In this document: one piece after another, positions 5,952 through 41,455 of the stretch
Layout of the letters: every line of letters begins with the position of its first letter
How positions within the stretch are numbered: the first letter of the stretch is position 1
Virus genome (UHGV): UHGV-0258472
Origin: a virus
Strand: one strand, 5' to 3'
DNA length: 55,135 nt
Notes under the pieces: model-generated
What the model was told of the DNA's origin: nothing
The model's database searches: none
What the model saw: only the letters and a program-made list of their open reading frames with translations
Program-made: the position numbers and the translations under genes

Positions 5952-6213
5952 CACTATGATCCTGTAAACAGTCGTTATAACCTTCGATGTATCCGGTTAA
6001 TCCGGTATTACTCACTGACCATTCAGCCGAACGGCGCTTGATGGCCTCGTCCATCGTGATTTCACCTTTGCGATGACATCCGGCATCAATATAGCGGTTA
6101 ACAACCGAAGATAGCCGCCCGCGTAGCTGTTGTGTTCCGGCGTAATATCGGGCCGTATCCGCAAGTTCGTTAATCAACTGGCGGTAAATATGTTCTTTTA
6201 ATTTAGGCTTCAT
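5941..6213 (-). CDS. hypothetical protein
   Basis: Internal ATG at 6213 with SD ggtga; upstream ATG at 6276 has no SD. Confidence 0.4.
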   Translation of the reverse strand: MKPKLKEHIYRQLINELADTARYYAGTQQLRGRLSSVVNRYIDAGCHRKGEITMDEAIKRRSAEWSVSNTGLTGYIEGYNDCLQDHSDGK

Positions 6214-6403
6214 TATCGTCACCACGCTTGTAAATTTTGACAGGCTTAATAGGGATGGCTGGCAATTCGCCTTCATTTAACGCGCTTGCCATACCCAATA
6301 TTAAACGCGCTTCCGCACCAGTGACTTTCTTACACCATGCGCCGCCTGTTTTATCTTCGAACAAGATAACAGCAAACTGATCGTTTATTTCCAGCTTATC
6401 CAT
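6203..6403 (-). CDS. hypothetical protein (66 aa)
   Basis: ATG at 6403 overlaps stop of upstream gene (TAATG); SD ggggtga. Confidence 0.4.
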   Translation of the reverse strand: MDKLEINDQFAVILFEDKTGGAWCKKVTGAEARLILGMASALNEGELPAIPIKPVKIYKRGDDNEA

Positions 6404-7125
6404 TATTCACCCCGTGTCACTCGTTTGATCTCGCTTTCCGCGCGGGCCTCTTCTTTGAATAGCTCCGCTATGGCGTCTTCATAAAAAACCCGGTATTTTT
6501 TCCACCATGTTGATCGGCTCACCGGAAAAACAAGCTGATTAACCGCCTGCCGGACGAGATCTACCGGGAAACGCGAGTACCCGCGCCCGCCGCAATGCTG
6601 GCACGTTTTAAACACTGGCATTTCCGCCGCTTCGCTGGCTGTTTTATCCGGTACTTCGCCGCGCCCCTTGCATTGTTTACAATGATTGCGAACTTTCCCA
6701 TGCCCCTTGCATTTTTTGCAAAGGTGTTTTTCTCCGTAGTCGTCAAACGTAAATTTATATCCGCCGCACTCCATACAAGTTTTTTCCGTCGCGGCGCTTT
6801 GGCAATAATCCCGAAACGCGAAAACGGCAACAAGAATAATGAGATCATTGCGTTTGGCCTCGTCCAGTTCCATAACGTATTCATAATCTTTTGCCATAGC
6901 CCTTAAACGCTCTGTAAGCAAAACTACGGCCTTATGTTTTTCGGCTTGTGATAGTTCCATCTTCCCTAAAAAAGCGCTATAGCCAAGCTCTACGCGCGAT
7001 TGCGCCATTCCTGCGGCAGTTAGCGCATCAGTAGTATTAAGCGCATCCGGGGACGTTCCCCGGCTTTCATCTGACAAACGCGGTGATTTCGGGAAGTGGA
7101 ATTTAAGAATTGATTCCAGATTCAT
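6403..7125 (-). CDS. Q-like late antiterminator candidate with four CxxCxGxG (DnaJ-type) zinc-finger repeats
   Basis: ATG at 7125; translation shows CMECGGYK, CKKCKGHG, CKQCKGRG, CQHCGGRG; overall resemblance to lambdoid prophage Q proteins from memory; sits downstream of RusA/NinG as in lambdoid nin regions. Confidence 0.5.
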   Translation of the reverse strand: MNLESILKFHFPKSPRLSDESRGTSPDALNTTDALTAAGMAQSRVELGYSAFLGKMELSQAEKHKAVVLLTERLRAMAKDYEYVMELDEAKRNDLIILVAVFAFRDYCQSAATEKTCMECGGYKFTFDDYGEKHLCKKCKGHGKVRNHCKQCKGRGEVPDKTASEAAEMPVFKTCQHCGGRGYSRFPVDLVRQAVNQLVFPVSRSTWWKKYRVFYEDAIAELFKEEARAESEIKRVTRGE

Positions 7126-8505: not shown

Positions 8506-8664
8506 AATGCTCTCTCCTTTTCAGGTGATTTCTACGCATTTCAGCGCTGCCGGATTTTTAAAGAGCATTTTGTTTGCTTGAAGTATACAAAATGGATACG
8601 TGCTAACAAGGTGTAAAGCGCCATTATGTGACATTCATCACACAATGACGCCATTTTGTAAACT

Positions 8665-12143: not shown

Positions 12144-12242
12144 TTTGGCTTCCTCCGCACCGTAAACCTTTCGATTTCGGTTTACATAACGGATATGCGA
12201 TCATAATACAAAATGTATATTTATGTGATCTGAATCACTCTG

Positions 12243-14844: not shown

Positions 14845-15485
14845 TAACCCATCTCCCCGTTAAGCTCTGATTTTCTGATCTGGTATACGTCGCTCGCTTT
14901 CTGTCGTTGCTCTGAGTTTTCAGGTAATAACTTCCAGCATTTAGCAAAAATATCTTTAAGCGCTTTTTCGTCCTGCGCTTTCGCTGCCGCATCACAAAAA
15001 CGCGCTAACACCTCGTCAGGATTTGGCGGCGCTTTCTGCTGCTGTGGCTGTTGTTTTGGTTGGTTTTTCTGCTGGCGTGGCTGCTGACCTGTCTGCTTAG
15101 CGTATGCGTCAGTATCAGGATCTCGCGCATCATCAATGCAGAATAAGCCGTTCAAAGCATATTTTCGCGCGTAACTTGATGTCGCTCCTGTTAGCTGGCT
15201 TGCATCCATACCCTTCTTGCTTTCTTCCTCCCTGGCGTAAGCAGTTACCGCTATTACGTCTTCACCGTCGCTTAATGTTGCCGTGGCTTTCACATAATAT
15301 CGATTGCCGATCAGGACAATTTCATCACTTACAGTCAGCGTGATATTTTGAAGCAGTGGTTTAACCGCCTCTAGAATATCCTCCGCCGACCTGTAATTAT
15401 ACCCACCAAAATTATTACGCTGATTTTTCGGCGCGTTCAGCGTTTGCTGAATCGTCCATAACTTTTTATGTAACTCTGTTTTCAC
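14844..15485 (-). CDS. erf: Erf-family single-strand annealing recombinase
   Basis: N-terminal region (...LNAPKNQ...YRSAEDILEAVKPLL...IVLIGNRYYVKATAT...AREEESKKGMDASQ..TGATSSYARKY..NGLF.IDDA) matches P22 Erf; GTG start at 15485 with SD aaggag. Confidence 0.85.
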   Translation of the reverse strand: MKTELHKKLWTIQQTLNAPKNQRNNFGGYNYRSAEDILEAVKPLLQNITLTVSDEIVLIGNRYYVKATATLSDGEDVIAVTAYAREEESKKGMDASQLTGATSSYARKYALNGLFCIDDARDPDTDAYAKQTGQQPRQQKNQPKQQPQQQKAPPNPDEVLARFCDAAAKAQDEKALKDIFAKCWKLLPENSEQRQKASDVYQIRKSELNGEMG

Positions 15486-15604
15486 TATTTAATCTCCTTC
15501 GCTGTTAACACTACGTATAAGGCTTTATTCGCGGCGCTCCACATTTCGGCATCGTGAAGCATTTCCGCTACAGCTAGTTTGAATTGAAGCGCACGAATAA
15601 CCAT
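15485..15604 (-). CDS. small ORF (39 aa) whose 3' end supplies the Erf SD
   Basis: ATG at 15604 with SD ggaggtga preceded by the acaaaatgtaaac motif. Confidence 0.35.
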   Translation of the reverse strand: MVIRALQFKLAVAEMLHDAEMWSAANKALYVVLTAKEIK

Positions 15605-15634
15605 AATGTCACCTCCAGCTGTTTACATTTTGTA

Positions 15635-15925
15635 TTAATGGTAGCGGACTTTATCCAGTGGTTTTTCCCCTAGCTGACGTGGTTGCGTTGCGTGGTAGTA
15701 GTTGCCGCTTTCATTTTCCGTATACCATTTTACTGATCCTTTGCGACGTTCTTTAATGCTATTTGATTTGCATCTTTCCTCGTTTGCAAAGCGAATAGCT
15801 TTATCCACATTGTCTGTTTTATTAATTGCAGGTGATGATTTTCTTTCGTTTTCTCTTTTTATTCTTCTGCGTTCCCTGGCATTCAGTTTACTGTCACATT
15901 TGCCATACATGATTGTAACTGTCAT
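15635..15925 (-). CDS. hypothetical basic protein (96 aa)
   Basis: ATG at 15925 with SD aaggag; first gene after the large non-coding region. Confidence 0.45.
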   Translation of the reverse strand: MTVTIMYGKCDSKLNARERRRIKRENERKSSPAINKTDNVDKAIRFANEERCKSNSIKERRKGSVKWYTENESGNYYHATQPRQLGEKPLDKVRYH

Positions 15926-16406
15926 GATCTGATCTCCTTATATCCTTGATGATACTTAATAAAAAATCATCTTCGTTAATTGCCGCACTTCCAGCGGCTG
16001 ACCAGATTGTTAAAGAATGGCTTAACATCTTTCAACTAATCCCGCAATCATCGCCGTTTCCGGTGTGACCCTGCTCACTCCAAGCAAGCTGACTCGTCGC
16101 CTTGCGTGCGGTTTCGTGGGGGATGTGACGCTTTAGACACCCCATGCGCCTTGTTATCAGTGCCGCTTTCGGTCCCCCATCGGGGAGTTACTCCACGGTT
16201 GACAAGGTGTTAAGCCTGATTTTTAAAGTGCCAGGAAGGCGCTTTTTGTTTCCTGCCTCCTTCCTTTGATTCGCAATATACGCCCTGTGATATACCGAGT
16301 CAATCCATTTTGTATACTTTTTTAAAATATTTTATATATCATTGATATTTAAATTATAAAAACAGTTTTTTGGTTTACGTTTTGGTTATTTTACGGGCAA
16401 AGAAAG

Positions 16407-16428: not shown

Positions 16429-17076
16429 TTATGGCAGGTTTACGATCTTCGCGTCAACTACCACACCTATGATTTTAGATTCTGGATTCATAGGGATTGG
16501 CGGATACAGCGGATTGAGCGAACGTAAAAGCCTTTGACCTCCATCAATAACAAGCTGTTTAAACGTAGGTGTTTGCCCTTCCTCCAGTTGGGCTATAACC
16601 AGTTTTCCGTCAATAGCTGGCGCGTGCGGATCGACAAGTATCATCGTCCCCGCTGGTATACTCAATCCTTGCGGCGCGTTCATTGATTCGCCTTTAGCTA
16701 CCAGCCAATAACTATCATCTGAACAAATAACGCTAGTCGTAACGTGTGGTAATGTTGCTCGCCTTGTATCTTCCATATTGTTTACTGCGTCCTTCCAGTC
16801 AACAACCGGGTAACTACCTAAATCACGCGGCGGCGCTCCCGGTAATGTATTAGAAATAGAATCATCTATGACCATTCCATCGTGTGTAACAGTGAATTGC
16901 CGACGCCCAAGCGCCCGCATGATACGCGCAATATCTTCAAGATTCGGCTCGCGGCGACCGTTCAGCCAGTGTGACAGGCCGCCTTTAGTTATCCCCATGA
17001 GATCCGCGAGTGAATCCTGGCTCATGCCTTGCGCCCGCATGAGTTGCTTTGCTAAGTCGTACCATTTTGTTTTCAT
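16429..17076 (-). CDS. CI-type prophage repressor (XRE HTH plus LexA-like S24 peptidase domain)
   Basis: N-terminal HTH (SQDSLADLMGITKGGLSHWLNGRR) and C-terminal Ser-Lys autopeptidase region (GESM ... KQLVIDG); ATG at 17076. Confidence 0.85.
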   Translation of the reverse strand: MKTKWYDLAKQLMRAQGMSQDSLADLMGITKGGLSHWLNGRREPNLEDIARIMRALGRRQFTVTHDGMVIDDSISNTLPGAPPRDLGSYPVVDWKDAVNNMEDTRRATLPHVTTSVICSDDSYWLVAKGESMNAPQGLSIPAGTMILVDPHAPAIDGKLVIAQLEEGQTPTFKQLVIDGGQRLLRSLNPLYPPIPMNPESKIIGVVVDAKIVNLP

Positions 17077-17100: not shown

Positions 17101-17200
17101 GTTTGACGCAAGTCACAAAACGTATTTTTCAAGCCTTGATCTTAAAACTCCATTCTGTAAACTTGCAGACAAGGTAAGGCCATACTTGCAAGGATGCAAG
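17101..17200. promoter_or_regulatory. candidate operator/promoter region between divergent repressor and rightward genes
   Basis: Repeated (A)CTTGCA(A)G-like half-sites (tgacgcaagtca, acttgcagac, acttgcaaggatgcaag) in the divergent intergenic region. Confidence 0.4.
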
Positions 17201-17380
17201 AAAAAAGATAATGGAAAGCACAAAAAGGCACATACCTTAAAAGCTCTTTAAAAATCCGGTGTCGCTGCGAAGCGAAAAACAAATATCACGCAACGGCGGG
17301 ATCTGTTGAGCGGTCAGTCACTGCTATCTAATGCTAATGGGATACCCGCCAGCGCGTTCACTCTAATCATAGGAGAAAAT

Positions 17381-17626
17381 ATGTATTACGTGCGCAAGGC
17401 TTTTGATATTCGCCTGAATAACAATGATCCGGCGCAAAAACTCATCTTAATTGCACTGGCAACAAAGGCCGGATGCAACGGTAAAAGCGAAGTAACGCCG
17501 GAAGAGATCGCTGAAATGTGCGAAATTTCGTTACGAGATACTATCTCTGCACTTCATCAACTGAAAAGAAGCGGCCTAATCAGCCAGCTACCGGGTTTTT
17601 TCTGTGTTTATCAGTTAATGTTTTAG
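17381..17626 (+). CDS. small HTH protein, paralogous to the N-terminus of the replication initiator; first rightward gene (possible Cro-like role)
   Basis: ATG at 17381 with SD aggag; KLILIALATKA...EEIAEMCEIS...LHQLKRSGLI parallels the N-terminus of 17633..18634. Confidence 0.5.
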   Translation: MYYVRKAFDIRLNNNDPAQKLILIALATKAGCNGKSEVTPEEIAEMCEISLRDTISALHQLKRSGLISQLPGFFCVYQLMF

Positions 17627-17632
17627 TTCGTC

Positions 17633-18634
17633 ATGAGGTTAATGCTTATGAGTATGCGGCTAATGGTAGAGGTATTCCATACTGAGGTCGGTGATCCAAT
17701 GCACAAACTAGTGCTGTTGAAGTTAGCTGATAACGCTAATGATAACGGCGAGTGTTACCCTTCTTACCATCACATAGCAAAGGAGTGTGAGATCAGCAAA
17801 AGAACAGCTATGAGGGCTGTAGACTCACTTTGTGAAAAAGGGTTGTTGATTAAACAACCAAGATACTTAATCGGAGGAAAAGAGCAAACTAGTAATTTCT
17901 ATGTAATAGTCCTTCCGTCATTGCATGGTAGTGTCACTGTGACACCGGGGGTAGTGACACAGAGTCACCAGGGTAGTGACACAGAGTCACCGGGGGTAGT
18001 GACACAGAGTCACCCTAACCAGTCATATATAACCAGTAAAGAGAACATTAAAGATATACCCCCTTATATCCCCCCAAAAGAAAAACATGTCAATCAGGAT
18101 GGCATAAACGAAGCGGCGTTGCGTTGCCTGGCCTTCTACAACGACAAGGCAGGATGCAAGTGTCGTGATGCTAAGCCATTCATCGAACTACTGACAGAAA
18201 CAAAAACACGTAAGGCATATACTGAGGATGAGATCACGTTAGTAATTGAGTGGGCTTTAACGCAATGGCGTAGCCGTGGTGGAACACCTAAGCCTATCAA
18301 CATTTGCAGGGTAACTAAGTTTGATGGGTATTTGGCTGATGCTGAACAATGGCGCAAGCTATCAGCTACTGTAAACGCTGCCGACGTGGTGGAAGCATTT
18401 AACAGCACGTTTGACGGCCTGTTACCACCTGCCGAACTGGATCGTGATCTTGAGCGCAAGATCTATGCGTTCACTGACTACCTGAAAGACAAAAGCATTA
18501 ACGGCTTTGTCGCCTACTTCGAAACGTTCAAAAACACGGCTTCAGATTTTTACTTCGGCAATGGCTTTACTGCGACACTTGATTTCCTGCTTAAACCAAA
18601 AACGCTACGTGATACACGCGCTGGCGCTCTTTGA
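17633..18634 (+). CDS. replication initiator protein containing the origin iterons
   Basis: N-terminal winged-HTH-like region; iterons embedded in the coding sequence as in lambda O; true start may be ATG 17699 (SD gaggt). Confidence 0.65.
   Translation: MRLMLMSMRLMVEVFHTEVGDPMHKLVLLKLADNANDNGECYPSYHHIAKECEISKRTAMRAVDSLCEKGLLIKQPRYLIGGKEQTSNFYVIVLPSLHGSVTVTPGVVTQSHQGSDTESPGVVTQSHPNQSYITSKENIKDIPPYIPPKEKHVNQDGINEAALRCLAFYNDKAGCKCRDAKPFIELLTETKTRKAYTEDEITLVIEWALTQWRSRGGTPKPINICRVTKFDGYLADAEQWRKLSATVNAADVVEAFNSTFDGLLPPAELDRDLERKIYAFTDYLKDKSINGFVAYFETFKNTASDFYFGNGFTATLDFLLKPKTLRDTRAGAL
17928..18014. repeat. origin iterons: one degenerate plus three exact copies of GTAGTGACACAGAGTCACC
   Basis: Copies at 17928-17946 (degenerate), 17951-17969, 17974-17992, 17996-18014; each carries an internal GTGAC/GTCAC inverted repeat; AT-rich segment follows. 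Confidence 0.7.
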
Positions 18635-19009: not shown

Positions 19010-19933
19010 ATGCGCAAGTTAACACATGATGAACATGTTGCGGCTATCGCTAAGGTTAATCATGATGTCGAAGTGCTTGGGGAAATTGTTAATAACAGGA
19101 CAAAAGTATCCTGCCGCTGCAAGGTTTGCAGTCACGAATGGTCGGCTAGACCTTACAATCTTAAAAGCGGTCACGGCTGCCCGAAATGCGCCGGAAAGAT
19201 GAAATTATCACACGAAGAACAGGTTGCCGCTATCGAGAAGGTTAATTCTGATGTCGAAGTGATTGGCGAAATAATAAACGGCTATACAAAAGCATTATGC
19301 CGCTGCAAAGTTTGTAATCACGAATGGTCGGCTAAACCTAACAACCTAAAAAACGGGCGCGGCTGCCCGAAATGTAAAGGTTTAAAAATCGCACAAAGAC
19401 GAACATTATCACACGAAGAACATTTATCCGCTATCACTAAGGTAAATCATGATATTGAAGTATTGGCAGAAATAATAAACGATAGGACAAAAGTATTATG
19501 TCGATGCAAGGTTTGTGATCATAAGTGGTCGCCTAGACCTTATGCTATTAAAAGCGGGCAAGGCTGCCCGAAATGTGCGAAACACGGTTTTTTGTCACAC
19601 GATTTCGGCAAACTTTACATCATGGTTGATGATCCTGAAGTGCCTACACAAATGAAAATCGGCGTAAGCGTTAATGAGAACAAGCGAAGAAATCGGGTAT
19701 TAAAAAGCGCACATAAATCAGGCGTTAGAATCCCTGATTTATGTGTCGTGAAAACGTTAGAAGGTCCAACCGAAAATATCCATGAATTAGAAAGCACGAT
19801 GCATAAATATTTCAGCAATTATAAAATTAACTTTCCTGTAAAATTTGATGGCAGCAATGAGTTTTTCTATTACAGGCCTGAAGTATTCGACATGGTAGAA
19901 GAAGCATATAAAGAGGTTGTTTGCTGCCAATGA
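19010..19933 (+). CDS. protein with three tandem zinc-ribbon repeats and a C-terminal T5orf172/GIY-YIG-like domain
   Basis: Three ~60-aa repeats each with CRCKVC ... GCPKC; C-terminal KLYIMVDD ... KIGVS ... NEFFYY resembling the GIY-YIG/T5orf172 pattern; ATG 19010 with SD aaggag. Confidence 0.6.
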   Translation: MRKLTHDEHVAAIAKVNHDVEVLGEIVNNRTKVSCRCKVCSHEWSARPYNLKSGHGCPKCAGKMKLSHEEQVAAIEKVNSDVEVIGEIINGYTKALCRCKVCNHEWSAKPNNLKNGRGCPKCKGLKIAQRRTLSHEEHLSAITKVNHDIEVLAEIINDRTKVLCRCKVCDHKWSPRPYAIKSGQGCPKCAKHGFLSHDFGKLYIMVDDPEVPTQMKIGVSVNENKRRNRVLKSAHKSGVRIPDLCVVKTLEGPTENIHELESTMHKYFSNYKINFPVKFDGSNEFFYYRPEVFDMVEEAYKEVVCCQ

Positions 19934-19966
19934 GTATACAAAATGTAAACCTGAGGAAATAACGTT

Positions 19967-21085
19967 ATGTCACAAAGAAAGATCAGCGACGAACAACTGA
20001 TCGCTGAATACAACAATGGGAAAACTTACAAGCAAATAGCCGAAGAATATGGAATGGCAAAACGCAACGTAGAACGCCTGGGCGCACGGCTGGCGAAGCG
20101 CGGTTTAATATCCACGCGCCGCGCACCTGGCTTCGGTGTTAACGGTGAATCATTGCTCGTTGATAAGGATGGCGATGTGATTATGCGCTGGATTAAAACA
20201 GCCCGTGATCGCGACGAAATGGAAAGGCTAATGCAATCGGCTTGCGACGCTTTCACGGAAGAGATACCACGCGCGGAGGCCGTGCCAGTGCCTGAAATTG
20301 ATTTCCAAAAAAGCCTGGCCCTTTATCCGGTATTCGATCTTCATATCGGTGCGCTTGCTCATAAATCTGAATGCGGTGAGAGCTACGACACCGGGATCGC
20401 TGAACGCGTGCTAAATGATTTCTTTGACTACGCGGTAGGCGCTGCGCCAATGTCTGAAAAGGCTGTTTTGCTTCTCGGCGGGGATGTGCTTCACACGGAC
20501 GGGCTATTGCCAGTGACACCATCAAGCAATCACGTCCTGGATTGCGATTCACGCTACGCAAAACTTGTTTATGTGGCGATCCGGTCGGTCCGGCGGGCGG
20601 TCGGGAAAATGTTGTTAAACCACAAGGACGTCGAGATCCAAGTGTTATCCGGCAATCACGACCAGTCAGGAATGATCTGGCTACGTGCTGCGCTGGCTGC
20701 TTTTTACGAAGATGAACCGCGTGTGACGGTTGATGTGTCCCCTGCTATCGTCCACCACACACAGTACGGAAAAACATTCCTTGCCTATCATCACGGTCAT
20801 ACTATCAAAAAACCCGAAAATTTGTTGGCGGCGTGCGTCTCTGACTGGCGGGAGGATTTCGGCAAGTCGTCGGCGGTTTACGCTCATTGCGGGCACTGGC
20901 ATCATCAACGGCTGATTGAATCATCGTTAGGCGTTGTCGAGTATCACGGCACATTAGCTGGCAAAGACGCTTATTCAACGAATGGCGGCTGGCGGTCGCG
21001 GCGGCTGGCGGCGGTAATAATTTACAGTCCTGATCACGGGGAGATCGGGCGCTTTGTTTATTACCCTGAATATTCCATTTTGTAA
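19967..21085 (+). CDS. HTH-domain protein fused to a calcineurin-like metallophosphoesterase
   Basis: N-terminal HTH; phosphoesterase motifs DLHIG, GGDVLHTDG, GNHDQ, HHGH, GHWHH; ATG 19967. Confidence 0.6.
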   Translation: MSQRKISDEQLIAEYNNGKTYKQIAEEYGMAKRNVERLGARLAKRGLISTRRAPGFGVNGESLLVDKDGDVIMRWIKTARDRDEMERLMQSACDAFTEEIPRAEAVPVPEIDFQKSLALYPVFDLHIGALAHKSECGESYDTGIAERVLNDFFDYAVGAAPMSEKAVLLLGGDVLHTDGLLPVTPSSNHVLDCDSRYAKLVYVAIRSVRRAVGKMLLNHKDVEIQVLSGNHDQSGMIWLRAALAAFYEDEPRVTVDVSPAIVHHTQYGKTFLAYHHGHTIKKPENLLAACVSDWREDFGKSSAVYAHCGHWHHQRLIESSLGVVEYHGTLAGKDAYSTNGGWRSRRLAAVIIYSPDHGEIGRFVYYPEYSIL

Positions 21086-21103
21086 ACCTGAGGAAATGCC
21101 ATA

Positions 21104-22525
21104 ATGGTGACTGAGCAAGTAAACTCATTACGCCAGGAACGTGAGGCGGCTGTGATAGGTGGCCTCCTGTTAGGCGGGCTTACTCCTAACGCGCAAGATG
21201 TTCTTGCTACGCTCGATCCTGAAGTCTTCACCATTCCACTATATAAACGAGCGTTTGAGATCATCCGGGCGCAAGCAAGAAACAGAAACCTTATTGACGC
21301 GCTGATGGTCGGTGATGAAATCGGTAACGAAAATTTTGTCCCGCTAATGCAGACGGCGCGATCGTGTCCATCTGCCGCCAACCTTAAGGGGTACGCCGCG
21401 CTATTACAGGAGGAATATCAGCGGCGGCAGATGTTGGAACTGATGGACGATATACGCTACAACCTGGAAAACGGGACACTTGAAGCTGTCAGGGAGACGA
21501 TGAAATATTTTGATTCCCGGTATTCAAAATTAAAAGTAACGAAAGACAAGATTATTCCGGTGCTGTTGCGCGACGCGGTACAGGAGTACACGGAAGTTTT
21601 AAGCAAACGTATGGAATGTGGTGTCAATTCTGACAATATCAAAACAGGGATAGATCCACTCGACGAAATGTTAGGCGGCATTAACGCTACTGATCTGGTA
21701 CTTATCGCCGGACGCCCTGGATCTGGTAAATCGGCGTTGGCGTTGGCAATTGCCCGCGCGGCGGCTGAACGTCCATACCCTGGCGGCGAAGGTCAACGGG
21801 TCGGCGTTTTGCTGTTCACGCTTGAAATGTCGCTAGATCAGATGACTGAACGCGCTATAGCTGGCGCTGGGAATTTATCAACGGATTGCCTACGTAATCC
21901 GGTAAAACTTGATGACGAAGGGTGGGCGCACGTTGCCCAGGGGATGAGCGCACTTGCCGATCTCGACGTGTGGATTGTTGACGCATCGCAATTGACAGTA
22001 GAGGAAATCCGCGCCACCACGGAACGGATGAAACAGGACCATCCCAACCTGGGAATGGTAATGATTGACTACATCGGGTTAATGAAGCTGGCTAAGGCCG
22101 AACGTCATGATCTCGCCGTAGGGCAATTGTCGTGGTCATTGAAAATGATGGCGAAAGAGTTGCGCGTGCCAGTGGCGGCGCTGGCGCAATTATCCCGCCG
22201 CGTTGAAGAACGACCGAACAAGCGCCCGAACAATTCCGATCTGCGTGATTCCGGTAATCTTGAACAAGACGCAGACCGGATCATCATGGTCTACCGCGAC
22301 GGCTACTACAACGAACAATCAGTTGCCCGCGAATACATGGAGATCATCGTTTCAAAAAACCGTCACGGGAAAACGGGGACTGTTTACCAGCGGTTTGACG
22401 ATAACGGCAACATTTTACCATGCGACCAGGCACGCGCGGCGTCAGCCTGCATACAGTCAATGCAACAACGTCCGGCAGCAAGCCGATTTTCCCCACGAAA
22501 TAACCAGAATAACGCATCTTTTTAA
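21104..22525 (+). CDS. DnaB-family replicative DNA helicase
   Basis: Walker A GRPGSGKS, DnaB-like N-terminal domain and RecA-like core motifs; ATG 21104. Confidence 0.85.
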   Translation: MVTEQVNSLRQEREAAVIGGLLLGGLTPNAQDVLATLDPEVFTIPLYKRAFEIIRAQARNRNLIDALMVGDEIGNENFVPLMQTARSCPSAANLKGYAALLQEEYQRRQMLELMDDIRYNLENGTLEAVRETMKYFDSRYSKLKVTKDKIIPVLLRDAVQEYTEVLSKRMECGVNSDNIKTGIDPLDEMLGGINATDLVLIAGRPGSGKSALALAIARAAAERPYPGGEGQRVGVLLFTLEMSLDQMTERAIAGAGNLSTDCLRNPVKLDDEGWAHVAQGMSALADLDVWIVDASQLTVEEIRATTERMKQDHPNLGMVMIDYIGLMKLAKAERHDLAVGQLSWSLKMMAKELRVPVAALAQLSRRVEERPNKRPNNSDLRDSGNLEQDADRIIMVYRDGYYNEQSVAREYMEIIVSKNRHGKTGTVYQRFDDNGNILPCDQARAASACIQSMQQRPAASRFSPRNNQNNASF

Positions 22526-22602: not shown

Positions 22603-23160
22603 ATGAGCATTGAACTTGAAACAAAAGTTATCAATATCCTTGAACTGGACGGCATCGCAACAATGCACCAGCTACGCCAGAAAACCGGATTATCCGCGGA
22701 ATATGACGAAGCCGGATGTTTGCCTGAGACAATTAAACACTTGATTGATACTGGTATTGTCGAGCGTGTATATACATATTTCGGACCGCGCCGCCGCTTA
22801 TTGGGGTATCGAATTAAATATTTGTATGCACAACGGCGCGATCGTGTGGCTGCATTATTTAGTGACTACAGCGTTAAAAAGCGTATGCGTGACATTAGCG
22901 CGGAAACTGGTATTCCGTGGAATTATCTTTCGCGCACGCTGCGTTTAATGGTACTGGATGAAACACTTTGCATCGATACCAATAAACATGGCCTTAATTT
23001 TTACTCACTGTTTAAACCTGGGCGCTTCGGTCACGCAAATGATCTCGCGTTTGACTTTGACAGCCGCCTGAACGAATACCGGAAAAATAACGGACTGCTA
23101 CCGGATAAACCAGTATTTGAGATCGAAAAACTTAACGTGGAAACGGGGTTAGAATTATGA
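22603..23160 (+). CDS. hypothetical protein (185 aa)
   Basis: ATG 22603 with SD gaggcg. Confidence 0.45.
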   Translation: MSIELETKVINILELDGIATMHQLRQKTGLSAEYDEAGCLPETIKHLIDTGIVERVYTYFGPRRRLLGYRIKYLYAQRRDRVAALFSDYSVKKRMRDISAETGIPWNYLSRTLRLMVLDETLCIDTNKHGLNFYSLFKPGRFGHANDLAFDFDSRLNEYRKNNGLLPDKPVFEIEKLNVETGLEL

Positions 23161-25066: not shown

Positions 25067-26223
25067 TAATCAGCCAGTTTATTCATCGCCTCTATTTGCT
25101 CCTTCACGTAATCATACTGATCATATATAGCCATCATTCCCGCCAGTTTATGACCTAAAACCTTTTCTGCTACGTGCGGCGCAATGCCAAGCGCTGAAAG
25201 GTTTGTCCTTACAGTGCGGCGCAAGTCGTGACACGACCACGGCTCGCCGCCCATCCTTAGCATCAAATCCCTTGCGGCTGTTTTCGGCACGCTCCTGTCT
25301 ACCGCTTCATCCCTTCCAGAAAGCACGGGAACGAAGATAAAATTAAAGCCGTGCAAATCCATAGCTTCACGCAATAAATCAACGCTAACGGCGGATAAAC
25401 CGCGTTTAAACTCGTTTCTGTTCTTACTCAATGCGCCCGGCACGGTCCACACACAGTTATCAAGATCGAAATGCTCGCGCCTTGCGTTTGTTAGTTCGCT
25501 TGTTCTGCATCCGGTGAATATAATCAGCTTCATCAATATCTGATTTAGCCGCGCCATTTTTGAACTGTCTATAATGCTGATTAGATGGTGAATCTCTTGT
25601 ATTGATAAGACGCGTTTCCTTTGTGCCGGGTTTTTGCCTACGTCTTTCACGCGTAGCAATGATATGTCGTCACGCTCCACGCGGCGGCGGCGCATGGCAT
25701 ATTTTATCACCGCCTTCATCCTGTTTAAGACTATCCCTGCCTGAACGGGCGCGCCACCATTAGCTACCTTTCTAAAAATACCCTCCCACATTATGGAGTC
25801 CATATCATCGACGATATAGCTACCGCATGGTCTGACAATGTGCTTACTTAGCATCGCCTCGACTTGCTTATAGTTGACCATGTTTCTTGCCTGCGGTGAT
25901 TCCATGTACTCCCTAACAATATCTTCAATCGTTGCCCGTGTCGTAACGCGGGAAAAGTTCATTCTTTTTACGATCGATGGATCTCGTCCTGAGTTTAAGA
26001 CTTCCTTATGCTCCGCCACCGCCGCGCGGGCTTCTTTGAGCGTTATTTCTCCGTAAGTGCCAATCTTCATCCGTCGCGGCTTGCCGTTGAATCGGTAGCG
26101 ATACTGGAAAGATATAACGCCGTGCGGGCTTATCCTGGCAGACAATCCGCCCGCGTCCGGGACTTCTTCCGGGCCGTCATATGGCTTGCCGTGGATGTTT
26201 CGTAATTTGGTATCTGTAAGCAT
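25024..26223 (-). CDS. int: tyrosine site-specific integrase
   Basis: C-terminal catalytic region with R ... HDLRRT ... Y; N-terminal arm-binding-like domain; start set at ATG 26223 (ORF-track 26292 is GTG). Confidence 0.8.
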   Translation of the reverse strand: MLTDTKLRNIHGKPYDGPEEVPDAGGLSARISPHGVISFQYRYRFNGKPRRMKIGTYGEITLKEARAAVAEHKEVLNSGRDPSIVKRMNFSRVTTRATIEDIVREYMESPQARNMVNYKQVEAMLSKHIVRPCGSYIVDDMDSIMWEGIFRKVANGGAPVQAGIVLNRMKAVIKYAMRRRRVERDDISLLRVKDVGKNPAQRKRVLSIQEIHHLISIIDSSKMARLNQILMKLIIFTGCRTSELTNARREHFDLDNCVWTVPGALSKNRNEFKRGLSAVSVDLLREAMDLHGFNFIFVPVLSGRDEAVDRSVPKTAARDLMLRMGGEPWSCHDLRRTVRTNLSALGIAPHVAEKVLGHKLAGMMAIYDQYDYVKEQIEAMNKLADYYMKPIDLQNEITS

Positions 26224-26227
26224 AAAT

Positions 26228-26479
26228 TTGGTCACTATTTGGTACACACATTTCACGCATGGATAGTAACACGATAGAAAACGATATGACACGATAGAAT
26301 AAATATTTCTTTTAAAATCAAGGTGAAACGGTGACGATGTGACACGATATGAAATGATAGAAATGGCGTTATCCGCTTATCTTTTGAATGGATAACTTAA
26401 TGAAAAATTCATTTGTATTCAATGTGTTATGTTTTGTTTTTGTTTTTTATTTATCATTTTGGTCACTATTTGGTACACA
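26228..26479. other. candidate attP region
   Basis: 21-bp direct repeat TTGGTCACTATTTGGTACACA at 26228-26248 and 26459-26479; ACACGATAGAA-like repeats between; inverted GTTATCC ... GGATAAC at 26368-26396; directly upstream of int. Confidence 0.4.
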
Positions 26480-26536
26480 AAAAGAAACGAGGCGTTAGCC
26501 TCGTTTCGCGCGGCGATGTTCTTCGCACATCACCTC

Positions 26537-29098: not shown

Positions 29099-29275
29099 CG
29101 CAATGACTCCATTATGTTAATTAACGGAATAATTCTACCATTTTGTGATCTATGTTACATTTTTGACTTATACAAAATGTATTTATTGATTTATATCAAT
29201 ATACGAAATGTGGTTTTGTCGGATATTTAAGCCACCGGATGAACCGGATGAGCTAACAAGAACGAGGATTAAAAA

Positions 29276-29524
29276 ATGAAAAACATGTTCAAAGTGGTTT
29301 TATTCGCTGCGGCTGTTGCTCTTACTGGTTGCGCTGTTGACAAAGAAGCTGCATTGCATAACCTGCCAAATAGCGGAGTGATTCCACAAGAAATCGTCTA
29401 TGATGCTAATGGTCATCTTGTATATGACACTGAAAAACTGCCATATACTGGTCAATGGTGTCATGAACTCGATCACAACATGCGCCGCATCGGTAGCCCG
29501 TCGAATTGTGTAGCTAACTACTAA
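29276..29524 (+). CDS. lipoprotein moron (signal peptide plus lipobox LTGC); candidate superinfection-exclusion lipoprotein
   Basis: MKNMFKVVLFAAAVALTGC signal/lipobox; antisense to flanking tail genes; own terminator; ATG 29276 with SD gagga. Confidence 0.6.
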   Translation: MKNMFKVVLFAAAVALTGCAVDKEAALHNLPNSGVIPQEIVYDANGHLVYDTEKLPYTGQWCHELDHNMRRIGSPSNCVANY

Positions 29525-36344: not shown

Positions 36345-36473
36345 TTTCTCACCTTTCGCTTTTTTGTGATCTGCATCACGCTAAATCATACCGAAATGGT
36401 TGATCGCGCTTTTTACAATATGTATATTTTACTCAAACGAAGTGGTAGTTAACAAAATGGCGCGGGGTGATTT

Positions 36474-37905: not shown

Positions 37906-38072
37906 AAAACCCCCTATAAGTTACATTTTGTATATACCTTTACGCGATTCTACGCGAAAAATGAGATCTTCATCACAATGATTATAGCCAGTTTTCAAAA
38001 TGGCTTCACTTTGGAAATCACATATTGTATACAGAAAGCAAATAAGAAAGACGTTGCACAAAGGGGGATGTT

Positions 38073-41206: not shown

Positions 41207-41455
41207 AATTTAACCTCATACAAAATGTGATCTATGTCTCTATTTTATACAAAATGGCTTCATTTCAACGAATACATTTTGTATAAAGAAGGTGAAGGAT
41301 GAGAGAGATAAAAGAAGGTCGAAGGATATAAAGGATTAAGACTTGAAGCACAGCTAACCGATGGAACGAGGGAGGCGAAAACCCCTAAAACTAAGGAAAC
41401 AGCAAAGGGATTTAAAAGGCCGGATTAACCGGAGGAAGCAAAAGAGGATAAGAAA

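Follow-up and report, generated by a model that had tools for sequence, protein, structure and literature searches.

A box-containing gene leader conserved across mEp021-like coliphages and repeated before the PDE-like and helicase genes

The identical 17-nt segments that precede the PDE-like gene and the replicative helicase gene of this phage are very probably the middle parts of orthologously conserved intercistronic leaders, found family-wide, and not the scar of an insertion. Both leaders open with a short quasi-palindromic box, an undescribed lineage-specific element of a known kind, which the sole genomic study of these phages does not mention (PMC11893012). The window (the whole stretch of 55,135 nt that was analysed) is the complete genome of an mEp021-like ("mEpimmI") temperate coliphage. 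This phage is non-lambdoid (PMC11893012), unlike those with which the original prediction compared it. Its relatives are all of one immunity type (PMC11893012), and mEp021-like phages reportedly occur in the human gut as often as lambdoid phages do. The phage encodes an ERF-family recombinase, its repressor is a cI/LexA-type S24 protein, and it has lambda-like N/nut antitermination.

The two leaders and their orthologues

The leaders separate three plus-strand genes. The first (19010-19933) occupies a variable slot and encodes three Zn-ribbon (DUF4379/CapR) repeats and a T5orf172 (GIY-YIG-like) domain. The second, the PDE-like gene (19967-21085, 372 aa), matches phrog_704 'DNA repair exonuclease' (E 9e-138) and has no Pfam match; its N-terminus gives a weak HTH match, and in some prophages the PGAP label is 'metallophosphoesterase family protein'. 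The third (21104-22525, 473 aa) encodes a DnaB-type replicative helicase (DnaB_C 1.9e-75, DnaB N-terminal 9.7e-12). A search of the window finds TGTAAACCTGAGGAAAT exactly twice, at 19944-19960 and 21081-21097 on the plus strand, which confirms that the leaders are identical over 17 nt including the SD; a third copy is absent from the window at up to 3 mismatches. Each copy begins 23 nt 5′ of an ATG (19967 for the PDE-like gene, 21104 for the helicase gene), includes the SD GAGG and stops 6 nt short of the ATG, and the similarity between the two leaders runs over 26 nt at 85%.

The 17-mer covers only part of each leader. The full PDE leader (19934-19969, plus strand) consists of the GTATACAAAATGTAAAC box with its core TACAAAATGTA at 19937-19947, the SD, the start context ACGTTATG and the ATG; here the 17-mer comprises the 3′ half of the box, the linker and the SD (19953-19956). 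The full helicase leader (21073-21106, plus strand) consists of the TTCCATTTTGTAAAC box, the SD, the CCATAATG start context and the ATG, and its 17-mer comprises the 3′ half of the box, the PDE stop codon and the SD (21090-21093). The left half of this second box is constrained by the PDE codons Ser-Ile-Leu-stop. The upstream stop codons lie at the edge of the motif, as predicted: the TGA of the slot gene (19931-19933) ends 1 nt before GTATACA, and the TAA of the PDE-like gene (21083-21085) falls within the second 17-mer. The proposal that both copies sit in a CATTTTGTATA-type motif holds in that each overlaps a match, but the two matches are on opposite strands (19935-19945, minus; 21076-21086, plus, with 1 mismatch), because the core is quasi-palindromic (TACA-N3-TGTA). 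Exact direct repeats of at least 17 nt are expected 0.03 times in mononucleotide shuffles of the window, compared with ten observed. TGTAAACCTGAGGAAAT is the sole repeat of this length common to two gene leaders; the remaining ones are iterons, Zn-ribbon repeats, tail-fibre repeats and att arm-type repeats. The identity is thus non-random, but it is that of a conserved motif and not of a recent copy.

The comparison covered 50 related phages (7 from GenBank and 43 from IMG/VR) and 35 E. coli prophages. Both leaders are present in all 50 phages, and the PDE-like gene lies directly upstream of the helicase gene in 50/50 phages and in 35/35 prophages, in each of the latter in one unbroken piece at 100% coverage. 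Among these 85 relatives there is no helicase gene lacking the PDE-like gene and preceded by a single junction, and in no relative does it directly follow the Zn-ribbon gene or the initiator gene. Therefore no relative shows a "pre-insertion" state, and the claim that the PDE-like gene arrived as an insertion that duplicated the helicase initiation region is not supported. Moreover, leaders of this design also stand before a kil-like gene of the leftward early operon and, more loosely, before two tail genes, a distribution that one insertion cannot explain. The same gene order with unrelated junctions is not found, because all relatives keep related junctions.

Within single genomes, the two 17-mers differ at 0 positions (n = 1, the window), 1 (n = 2), 2 (n = 6), 3 (n = 16), 4 (n = 11) or 5 (n = 6), and at more in the remaining genomes, so that in most of them the leaders differ at 2-5 positions. 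Because only the window shows no difference and its nearest relative shows one, the exact identity is the tail of a distribution. In that relative (L021), whose helicase is 99.6% identical to that of the window, the leaders differ only by CCTGAGG vs. CCGGAGG. Each leader is nearer to its own orthologues than to its partner in the same genome.

The conserved design is a box, a linker of 1-4 nt, an SD (GAGG or GGAGG) and an [A/C]CAWWATG start context. The half-sites of the box are conserved and its 3-nt centre varies freely, among A/T triplets, at a given orthologous site (AAA, TTT, TTC, ATT, ATA, TAT); across relatives the box of the PDE leader has AAA, TTT, TTC or ATT. At the mEp010-type HNH junction, where the PDE coding constraint is gone, the helicase box is a full AATACATTTTGTAAAC. 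The centre of the box lies 24 nt before the ATG in 23/23 leader variants of the kil-like gene, 30/30 of the helicase gene and 23/29 of the PDE-like gene. The SD is less strictly placed, at 7-8 or 10-11 nt from the ATG depending on the leader, with that of the kil-like gene 3 nt closer. All leader-type boxes point in the sense direction, their TGTAAAC half adjoining the SD, and in every class the upstream stop codon lies within the box or 0-3 nt from it.

The box and its copies across the genome

The lineage-specific box is a quasi-palindrome, W-TACA-WWW-TGTA-W, with half-sites of 5-6 bp, a 3-bp spacer and, at leaders, the 3′ extension TGTAAAC. Among the 9-mers of this genome, CATTTTGTA shows the strongest over-representation. 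In the window, CATTTTGTATA has 18 matches at 1 mismatch (2 expected), and TACAWWWTGTA has 14 strand-hits (0.3 expected). There are 14 exact and about 25 relaxed copies of the box; of the exact ones, 12 of 14 are non-coding, in a window of which ORF interiors make up 85%. The core can occur on both strands inside one transcription unit, e.g., at 8584 (minus) and 8652 (plus). It is absent from more distant phages and from the leader of a distant PDE homologue, and outside the group a 16-mer search gave chance matches only. The copies of 'CCATTTTGTAWAC' and those of 'TACAWWWTGTA' possibly represent distinct elements.

The third copy of the leader (15602-15637, minus strand) reads ATACAAAATGTAAAC-AGCT-GGAGG-TGACATT-ATG and precedes the kil-like ORF (15485-15604, minus strand, 39 aa), which matches phrog_34942 and, weakly, the Kil family phrog_2055. 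This leader copy directly follows the stop codon of the N-like gp17 homologue (15635-15925). A looser version, TATACAAAATGTAAC-TTATA-GGGGG-TTTT-ATG (37906-37936, minus strand), stands before a 117-aa minor tail gene and is kept in relatives, with the centre of the box 20-22 nt before the ATG. At the tape-measure gene the box lies directly 5′ of the SD, as CACATTTTGTA-T-GAGG-TTAAATT-ATG (41207-41230, minus strand).

About a dozen other copies lie in promoter regions and intergenic gaps, all of them non-coding. The box CCATTTTGTATAC (16305-16317, plus strand) abuts the -35 element of the predicted PL (TTGACT-17-TATATT, 16303 to 16275, minus strand), the best promoter match of the region, and the 16-mer CCATTTTGTATACTTT at this box has an exact second copy at 2371. 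The box-like CCATTCTGTAAAC (17150-17162, plus strand), in the cI/early-right intergenic region, probably overlaps a weak candidate for PR, TTGATC-16-TAAACT, which falls below the promoter-scan threshold. An inverted pair of boxes, TATACAAAATGG and CCATTTTGTAAAC (8584-8663), surrounds a perfect CRP-consensus core, TGTGACATTCATCACA (8627-8642), just upstream on the minus strand of a boxA-like nut element (cf. PMC11893012), and the full-palindrome box AATACAAAATGTATAT (12205-12215, minus strand) adjoins a CRP-like site at 12224-12239. Late-region boxes occupy divergent gaps between late genes and morons. Two of them (29169-29210, minus strand) flank the FNR-consensus palindrome TTGATTTATATCAA (29186-29199), near a CRP-like site at 29144, in the gap between the start of a tail-fibre gene and a plus-strand lipoprotein moron. 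The palindromic box TTTACAATATGTATAT (36415-36423), with a CRP-like site at 36365, lies between a minor tail gene and plus-strand morons. The gap upstream of the tape-measure gene holds two boxes, CCATTTTGTATA on the minus and ACATTTTGTATA on the plus strand (41246-41285). Of the nine best CRP-like sites, five lie less than 50 nt from a box (about 0.3 expected). Altogether the box marks PL, probably PR, the nut-site region, every divergent gap between morons and late genes, and three early gene starts.

Operator-like and RNA-level readings of the box

The reading preferred here, held tentatively and at somewhat less than an even chance, is that the box is an operator-like cis-regulatory site, to which a dimeric helix-turn-helix protein would bind, and that it most likely acts on DNA. 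Conservation of both half-sites around a free centre is the signature of a dimer site, and the occurrence of the box in both orientations and in regulatory contexts (the PL -35 element, CRP-like sites, divergent gaps) is consistent with such a role. The candidate binders are the phage cI-type repressor (16429-17076) or another early regulator, favoured because the PL and PR regions both carry boxes. Proteins considered as possible binders also include an 81-aa HTH protein (17381-17626), a MarR-like protein (22603-23160), the HTH-PDE protein itself and host proteins. At promoters, a bound box would modulate initiation. At the three early junctions, protein bound upstream of the start could damp read-through of the kil-like, PDE-like and helicase genes, which are potentially harmful (a kil-like product, a nuclease-like PDE and a helicase), much as dispersed operators or stoperators do. 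The SD and the AUG-proximal parts would then be an ordinary, deliberately unstructured translation-initiation region. Against the operator-like site stand the strict sense orientation of the early-leader boxes and their asymmetric TGTAAAC extension. The fixed register of 24 nt between box and ATG suggests, more naturally, a constraint at the level of translation.

An extended form of the operator-like reading is rather unlikely: an undescribed genome-wide control layer of 13-bp palindromic boxes at PL, PR, the early-operon junctions (with a fixed start register) and the late-operon restarts after morons. The binder may in that case be a phage regulator, possibly the immunity repressor itself. 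Such a layer, if true, would be an E. coli counterpart mixing features of stoperators and of the SAS/ESAS elements discussed below. The stoperators of Cluster A mycobacteriophages, bound by repressors such as L5 gp71, likewise consist of one motif at ~15-25 dispersed sites in promoters and intra-operon gaps, and they are a model for a gene-junction box that silences downstream genes (PMC9283540). However, a stoperator is an asymmetric 13-mer oriented according to the direction of transcription, and the repressor that binds it is a two-domain monomer (PMC9283540), whereas the box, as a putative repressor site, is quasi-palindromic and occurs in either orientation. In the temperate coliphage P1 a single repressor, C1, acts on many operators scattered over the genome, as is proposed for the box. 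The P1 operator is a 17-bp asymmetric sequence without association with SDs or start codons, and the lineage is unrelated.

It is possible, though doubtful, that the box, the SD and the AUG context are instead read together in mRNA, for coordinated translation of the kil-like, PDE-like and helicase genes; this corresponds to the shared translational operator that the original prediction gave as an alternative. The reader could be a phage or host RNA-binding factor, or the 30S subunit with protein S1 at an A/U-rich standby or enhancer site. In a variant, weak pairing between box and AUG region would be opened by the ribosome that terminates at the adjacent upstream stop (translational coupling). 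The box-ATG distance of 24 nt, fixed despite the variable SD position, agrees with these proposals, as do the uniform sense orientation of leader boxes and the stop codon within or near the box in every class. Complementarity between box and AUG region reaches 6.2-7.3 of 9 pairs in register, compared with 2-5.5 when slid, and one pair has T:A, T:G and C:G states in both the PDE and the kil-like leaders. However, this covariation amounts to about two events (T:A to C:G) in related sequences, the remaining pairs being either mismatched or without variation. The predicted stems have little stability (-2 to -8 kcal/mol), 7/8 leaders giving z-scores of +0.07 to +1.5, and the box-AUG duplex, ranking 36-52 among 111 genes, has an unremarkable energy. 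In the window leaders (MFE of -2.2 to -6.7 kcal/mol) no stable stem that would sequester the SD or AUG is found, and Rfam 15 gives 0 matches in the whole window at the gathering threshold. That the leaders are less structured than shuffles, like efficient initiation regions, suits an RNA-level role. The placement of the core is a further difficulty: it occurs in both orientations and away from starts, at the PL -35 flank and in CRP-associated gaps, and its centre flips between AAA and TTT at one site. If the box were only a favoured initiation-region sequence, the finding would be ordinary.

A close architectural parallel to the leaders is ESAS plus SAS of the Cluster K mycobacteriophages (PMC3203893), which also favours an RNA-level role. 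SAS is likewise a short lineage-specific repeat that includes the SD and stands a few nt before the starts of some of the genes; ESAS is an imperfect inverted repeat immediately upstream, sometimes with the upstream stop inside, and both are conserved with the gene family (PMC3203893, PMC12699233). For both SAS/ESAS and the box, an mRNA hairpin is unsupported. The sequences are unrelated: the SAS consensus is the 13-bp GGGATAGGAGCCC (up to 2 deviations; PMC3203893), compared with TGTAAAC-n(1-4)-GGAGG here. Per genome SAS marks many more genes: its 93 sites across the genomes analysed keep to the non-structural half, with nearly uniform orientation (PMC3203893), whereas box leaders serve three early and two tail genes and the core also stands alone, in promoter regions and on either strand. 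The ESAS repeats have 17 bp and spacers of 4-13 bp, in contrast to the half-sites of 5-6 bp and 3-bp spacer of the box, and the host is Mycobacterium instead of E. coli. The question of SAS/ESAS function, unsettled for more than a decade, was still open in 2025 (PMC12699233). The mEp021-like phages are easily handled in E. coli K-12, and the function of a start-associated, dispersed motif is therefore testable with standard tools.

Cassette exchange, promoter and scar readings

Upstream of the PDE-like gene the leader borders a true cassette boundary. The slot between the initiator gene and the PDE-like gene measures 396 to 1898 bp and takes ~15 architectures, nearly all ending in the box, and at least 7-9 unrelated upstream 3′ ends stop 1-3 nt before TATACA. 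Boxes lie on both sides of the variable slot in ~8 of ~37 architectures; the Zn-ribbon gene of the window has none upstream. Two relatives (L009 and L031) carry an insert of ~135 nt exactly between two copies of the box, and the extra 236-aa gene of mEp044 has its own box and SD. Between the PDE-like and helicase genes, 6/50 relatives have an HNH gene; in the mEp021 type this gene includes a divergent duplicate of the 3′ end of the PDE-like gene.

The box could on this evidence be a recombination linker, a short homology for cassette exchange, insertion or deletion by the ERF-type recombinase or the host, its conservation reflecting a history of exchange and not a role in expression. The slot architectures and their unrelated ends abutting TATACA, the peak of homology breaks at 19935 (in 39 loci, with others at 21061, 38064 and 41306), the insertions with boxes and the ERF-family recombinase all point this way. 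Nevertheless, this explanation is improbable. Breakpoints are scattered through the PDE-like and helicase genes without clustering, and of the 23 distinct intervals only ~3 span the 18-nt junction. Genome-wide, 136 homology ends lie within 25 nt of boxes, compared with 194 ± 60 for gene ends drawn at random in equal number. Many boxes mark invariant junctions (those at the kil-like gene, at PL and in the nut region), the shared homology is very short at 11-16 nt, and the fixed ATG register is left unexplained. The original prediction likened the repeat to boundary sequences for module exchange. The conserved junctions and the cassette border upstream of the PDE-like gene are in keeping with this, but the breakpoints are not, boxes being no richer in homology breaks than gene ends. 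The boundary sequences proposed for lambdoid phages (cited in PMC3029335, refs 21-22) resemble the box as a short conserved edge of an exchangeable cassette, and the insert in relatives that is flanked by two box copies fits that description. They differ from a motif with no breakpoint clustering and many invariant junctions in a non-lambdoid phage.

The box is equally hard to accept as a promoter element, in which TTTTG-TATAYT would serve as a -10 region for CRP-assisted sigma-70 or sigma-S and the leader copies would be non-functional look-alikes; such a role is quite unlikely. Several copies do have TTTTG followed by TATACT, TATTAT, TATATT or TATAAA, and those at 8.59 kb (minus) and 36.42 kb (plus) can be likened to class I CRP promoters, with a -35-like hexamer 16-17 nt upstream and the centre of a CRP-like site about 60 nt upstream. 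However, a consensus scan gives no plus-strand promoter at either leader. Leader-type copies have TAAACC as the hexamer, and initiation at them would yield a transcript devoid of the SD. The copies at 2372, 8652, 16306 and 19945 would drive antisense transcription. Furthermore, the TG abuts the hexamer instead of having the canonical TGn spacing, and a promoter role does not account for why the left half-site is symmetrically conserved.

A recent scar, left by a PDE insertion that duplicated the helicase initiation region or by a gene conversion that homogenised the leaders, is highly unlikely and, as an insertion, largely refuted. The 17/17 identity is confined to the window genome. The helicase-leader variant CCTGAGGAAAT is found only there among 51 genomes and the same string occurs in PDE leaders, so that a short conversion patch from 1137 nt upstream is possible; junction-duplicating insertions are also known at this place in relatives (the mEp021-type HNH gene; the L009/L031 insert). 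Against this, no phage (0/50) or prophage (0/35) lacks the PDE-like gene upstream of the helicase gene, the leaders have diverged from each other in all other genomes, the kil-like gene and, more loosely, the tail genes have the same leader, and one G-to-T substitution from an existing helicase-leader variant would suffice to explain the identity. Whether mutation or conversion produced it is of little consequence. The exact repeat is no evidence of recent rearrangement and is thus unfit for inferring how the replication module was assembled.

Free-standing homing-endonuclease genes of the T4 seg/mob type sit in phage intergenic regions. The present case is similar in that both leader junctions border endonuclease-type genes present in some relatives and absent from others. 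Homing endonucleases explain the variable junctions, but not the conservation of the box or its 15+ other sites. The Zn-ribbon/T5orf172 gene of the window matches phage endonuclease and homing-endonuclease PHROGs, and in relatives it is replaced, shortened, lengthened or absent.

The repeated leader and its genomic setting

The sequence TGTAAACCTGAGGAAAT occurs exactly at 19944-19960 and at 21081-21097 on the plus strand, as the original prediction held, and the whole window contains just these two copies, a third being absent even with up to 3 mismatches. The ATG lies 23 nt from the start of each 17-mer, at 19967 for the phosphoesterase-like (PDE) gene and at 21104 for the DnaB-type helicase gene, and the wider likeness between the two leaders covers 26 nt at 85%. 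The upstream stop codons also lie where they had been placed: TGA (19931-19933) is 1 nt 5' of GTATACA, and TAA (21083-21085) falls within the second 17-mer. Shuffled windows yield 0.03 exact repeats of such length by chance, and the exact repeat is confirmed. The 372-aa PDE product hits phrog_704, 'DNA repair exonuclease' (E 9e-138), and its N-terminus shows a weak match to an HTH; Pfam gave no hit and a PDB sequence search no significant one. The helicase gene has a DnaB_C match (1.9e-75).

The window comprises the entire genome of a temperate phage, with 83-91% nucleotide identity to mEp021, mEp013, mEp044, mEp554, mEp010, mEp515 and MagusPhagus. These relatives form the 'mEpimmI' group, which is Nus-dependent and not lambdoid (PMC11893012). 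The early-left genes and the cI/LexA-type repressor gene (16429-17076) are on the minus strand, and the early-right operon runs on the plus strand in the order small HTH protein, initiator with iterons, variable slot, PDE-like gene, helicase and further genes. The integrase follows, and then the late genes on the minus strand, broken up by four plus-strand moron blocks. The 3-4 tandem iterons GGGTAGTGACACAGAGTCACC at 17924-18013, within the HTH_36 initiator gene, presumably mark the origin of replication, by analogy with lambda O. In lambda-type replication modules the helicase loader lies between initiator and helicase, and it is this interval that the PDE-like gene occupies. Direct repeats resembling arm-type sites (TTTGGTCACTATTTGGTACACA twice, ACGATATGACACGATA-type four times) at 26222-26480, beside the integrase gene, mark the probable attP region. 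Three boxA-like elements GCTCTTTAAAAATCCGG (17243-17259, plus; 16215-16231 and 8549-8565, minus) fit in position the three nut sites reported for the mEpimmI group; 5' of the 8.55-kb element there is a possible internal promoter, whose -10 is the TATACT of a box.

A lineage-specific box at gene starts and in regulatory gaps

Both leaders contain a quasi-palindromic box, W-TACA-WWW-TGTA-W. In the window, CATTTTGTATA occurs 18 times at 1 mismatch against 2 expected, the palindromic form TACAWWWTGTA gives 14 strand-hits against 0.3 expected, and the top over-represented 9-mer of the genome is CATTTTGTA. Exact copies lie outside ORF interiors in 12 of 14 cases, though ORF interiors make up 85% of the window. 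More distant phages that share an early-left gene (L140-150), the PDE gene (a T1-like Klebsiella phage) or a helicase (L051) carry no box, and an exact-pattern scan of IMG/VR for the 16-mer TATACAAAATGTAAAC returned, beyond the group, only chance hits without SD or ATG context. The box is a real, lineage-specific cis-element of a known general kind. It appears undescribed, since the group's paper covers nut sites, att motifs and lipoboxes and names no dispersed intergenic motif and no operators (PMC11893012). By-eye comparison with the consensus sequences of the host factors LexA, IHF, Fis, TyrR, PhoP, OmpR, CpxR and CsrA gave no convincing fit. Phylogenetic footprinting covered 23 motif sites, but at 85-97% identity the relatives are too close for footprints to resolve. 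A start-stop mini-ORF formed by ATG-TAA in the box was rejected because it has no SD and is not conserved, other classes having TTG, CTG or no stop.

In leader-type copies a linker of 1-4 nt joins the box to the SD, and the start context is [A/C]CAWWATG. This form is fixed across about 50 genomes at the PDE gene, the helicase gene and a 39/40-aa kil-like gene, whose leader in the window (15602-15637, minus) directly follows the N-like gp17 homologue; looser versions precede a 117-aa minor tail gene and the tape-measure gene. From box centre to ATG there are 24 nt in all 23 kil-like variants, all 30 helicase variants and 23 of 29 PDE variants, and this register is unchanged while the distance from SD to ATG varies, from 7-8 nt in the kil-like leader to 10-11 nt in the PDE and helicase leaders. 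The start context, often TAAACAWWATG, occurs at 9 of the 111 predicted starts, roughly nine times as often as by chance, which suggests a lineage-wide preference near the initiation codon, similar to one half of the box.

Copies in regulatory gaps mostly show a fuller palindrome, TATACA-WWW-TGTATA or CCATTTTGTATAC. One adjoins the -35 of PL (TTGACT-17-TATATT, 16303 to 16275, minus), the best promoter match of the region, a second lies in the gap between cI and the early-right genes (17150-17162), another at 12.2 kb, and an inverted pair surrounds a perfect CRP core (8584-8663) just upstream of a boxA-like nut element; boxes are also present wherever a late gene and a plus-strand moron block diverge (29.2, 36.4, 37.9-38.0 and 41.2-41.3 kb). 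Five of the nine best CRP-like sites in the genome are within 50 nt of a box, against about 0.3 expected. These palindromes (TGTGA-N6-TCACA with 0-1 core mismatches; 8627-8642, 12224-12239, 29144-29159, 36365-36380 and 37962-37977) lie about 20-24 or 42-46 nt from the box centre, a pattern that suggests catabolite-linked control of the morons and of the stretch preceding a nut site. Between two boxes, at 29186-29199, TTGATTTATATCAA matches perfectly the FNR consensus TTGAT-N4-ATCAA. It lies upstream of a plus-strand lipoprotein moron (29276-29524), a gene type reported to give superinfection exclusion in the mEpimmI group. A second long exact motif copy, the 16-nt CCATTTTGTATACTTT, is shared by the start of an early-left gene (2371-2386) and the -35 flank of the PL promoter (16305-16320). 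In the 12.2-kb gap, a hairpin GTAAACC-N10-GGTTTAC (12162-12185), whose stem holds the 17-mer word TGTAAACC, lies about 25 nt from a full-palindrome box.

In form, the nearest counterpart is the SAS/ESAS of Cluster K mycobacteriophages, an SD-containing repeat a few nucleotides before gene starts with an imperfect inverted repeat directly 5'; there the upstream stop is sometimes within the element, a hairpin is unsupported and the function is still unknown (PMC3203893; PMC12699233). The box differs in sequence, precedes far fewer genes and has much shorter arms, and its palindromic core also occurs alone in both orientations; it is not a member of the SAS/ESAS family. Its distribution over promoters and short intergenic spaces is like that of the stoperators of Cluster A phages; stoperators, however, are asymmetric, depend on orientation and bind a monomeric repressor (PMC9283540).

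DNA-level and RNA-level readings of the box

The explanation ranked first, and still tentatively, is that the box may be a protein-binding, operator-like DNA site. Four features of the sequence favour a reading at the DNA level. Conservation covers both half-sites and spares the 3-nt centre, which varies freely between A/T triplets at one orthologous position, as in a dimer-type site; both orientations are used; boxes also occur at promoter and regulatory DNA away from gene starts; and the helicase box returns to the full AATACATTTTGTAAAC where the mEp010-type HNH junction lifts the coding constraint of the PDE gene. A heteroimmune relative was sought for co-variation of box and repressor, and the candidate H38 carries the same LexA-family repressor; the group is one immunity type.

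A start-associated element acting in the RNA ranks second and is rather unlikely. The leader-type copies speak for a role in RNA or translation by their strict sense orientation, their asymmetric TGTAAAC extension and their fixed 24-nt register to the ATG. The whole window gave no match in an Rfam scan, and 7 of the 8 leaders folded gave no more stable structure than shuffled sequence (z +0.07 to +1.5), one PDE variant reaching -2.1. Pairing of the box with the AUG region was considered as a specific form of RNA hairpin. The in-register complementarity is real (6.2-7.3 of 9 pairs, against 2-5.5 when slid), and one pair appears as T:A, T:G and C:G in two separate leaders, which is thin covariation. 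A stable hairpin is not supported, since the duplex is unremarkable in energy (rank 36-52 of 111 gene starts), and this pairing is kept only as a minor variant of the RNA-level reading.

That the box is a promoter element is improbable. A sigma-70 scan of 15-27 kb found PL and no plus-strand promoter at the PDE or helicase leader.

Junctions, gene order and the variable slot

The leaders had also been likened to the boundary sequences proposed for module exchange, and this holds for one border only. The 'boundary sequences' cited in PMC3029335 fit the slot/PDE junction only. At this junction at least 7-9 unrelated upstream 3' ends halt 1-3 nt before TATACA, and homology breaks peak at 19935, as at a cassette border. 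In L009 and L031, two of the related loci, a non-coding insert of about 135 nt with a hairpin-like GC segment sits exactly between two boxes, between the Zn-ribbon and PDE genes (L031 4688-4863); it is absent from the window, whose two flanks are otherwise 97-98% identical in protein. Breakpoints do not cluster at the PDE/helicase junction: in 30 genome pairs with a sharp single change-point the intervals are scattered through both genes, and only about 3 of 23 distinct intervals span the 18-nt junction. Over the whole genome, 136 homology ends fall within 25 nt of a box, compared with 194 +/- 60 at an equal number of random gene ends. Recombination linkage as the primary function of the box is a poor prospect.

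Least probable of all is a recent scar or gene conversion as the source of the identity. The original prediction held that the PDE gene arrived as an insertion that duplicated the helicase start. Comparison with 7 annotated relatives and 43 IMG/VR loci anchored on the helicase, together with complete E. coli genomes, speaks against it: the PDE gene is directly upstream of the helicase in 50/50 phage relatives (with an HNH gene intervening in 6), the two form a single unbroken piece in 35/35 matching E. coli genomes, and no genome compared has the helicase straight after the Zn-ribbon gene or the initiator. The linkage is invariable in 85 relatives; a T1-like Klebsiella phage has a distant PDE homologue with neither an adjoining helicase nor such a leader, so the leader belongs to the lineage and not to the gene. 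Every relative has both leaders, and within a genome the two 17-mers mostly differ at 2-5 positions (no difference in one genome, the window; 1 in two, 2 in six, 3 in sixteen, 4 in eleven and 5 in six). In L021, the relative whose helicase is closest to that of the window (99.6% aa), the PDE leader reads CCTGAGG and the helicase leader CCGGAGG, so one G-to-T substitution, or a conversion patch of minimal size, is enough to give the 17/17 identity of the window. This identity amounts to ordinary conservation and one further base, and reading it as the scar of an insertion or as a linker for module exchange is for the most part mistaken.

An HNH homing-endonuclease gene lies between PDE and helicase in 6 of 50 relatives (mEp021, 6034-6582; L006, L007, L036, L040 and L041), and a homology break at 21061 is due to this insertion. 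In the mEp021 type the HNH gene overlaps the 3' end of PDE, and after it comes a diverged second copy of this 3' end. Insertion does therefore duplicate a junction in this region, with HNH genes and not with PDE; after the mEp010-type gene comes the full palindrome AATACATTTTGTAAAC.

The slot between the initiator and PDE genes is 396-1898 bp long and has about 15 architectures, empty sites included. Its contents are Zn-ribbon/T5orf172 endonuclease-like genes of 178, 240, 303, 375 and 495 aa, sizes consistent with gain or loss of repeats of about 62 aa, as well as unrelated 247-267-aa genes and, in mEp044, two genes. In the window the slot gene (19010-19933) has three tandem repeats of about 186 nt encoding Zn-ribbon (DUF4379/CapR) units, and a T5orf172 nuclease-like domain. 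The AUG of this gene is predicted to be tied up in strong pairing within its own leader (-13.2 kcal/mol, rank 2 of 111 gene starts); AUG sequestration has been reported for some homing-endonuclease genes.
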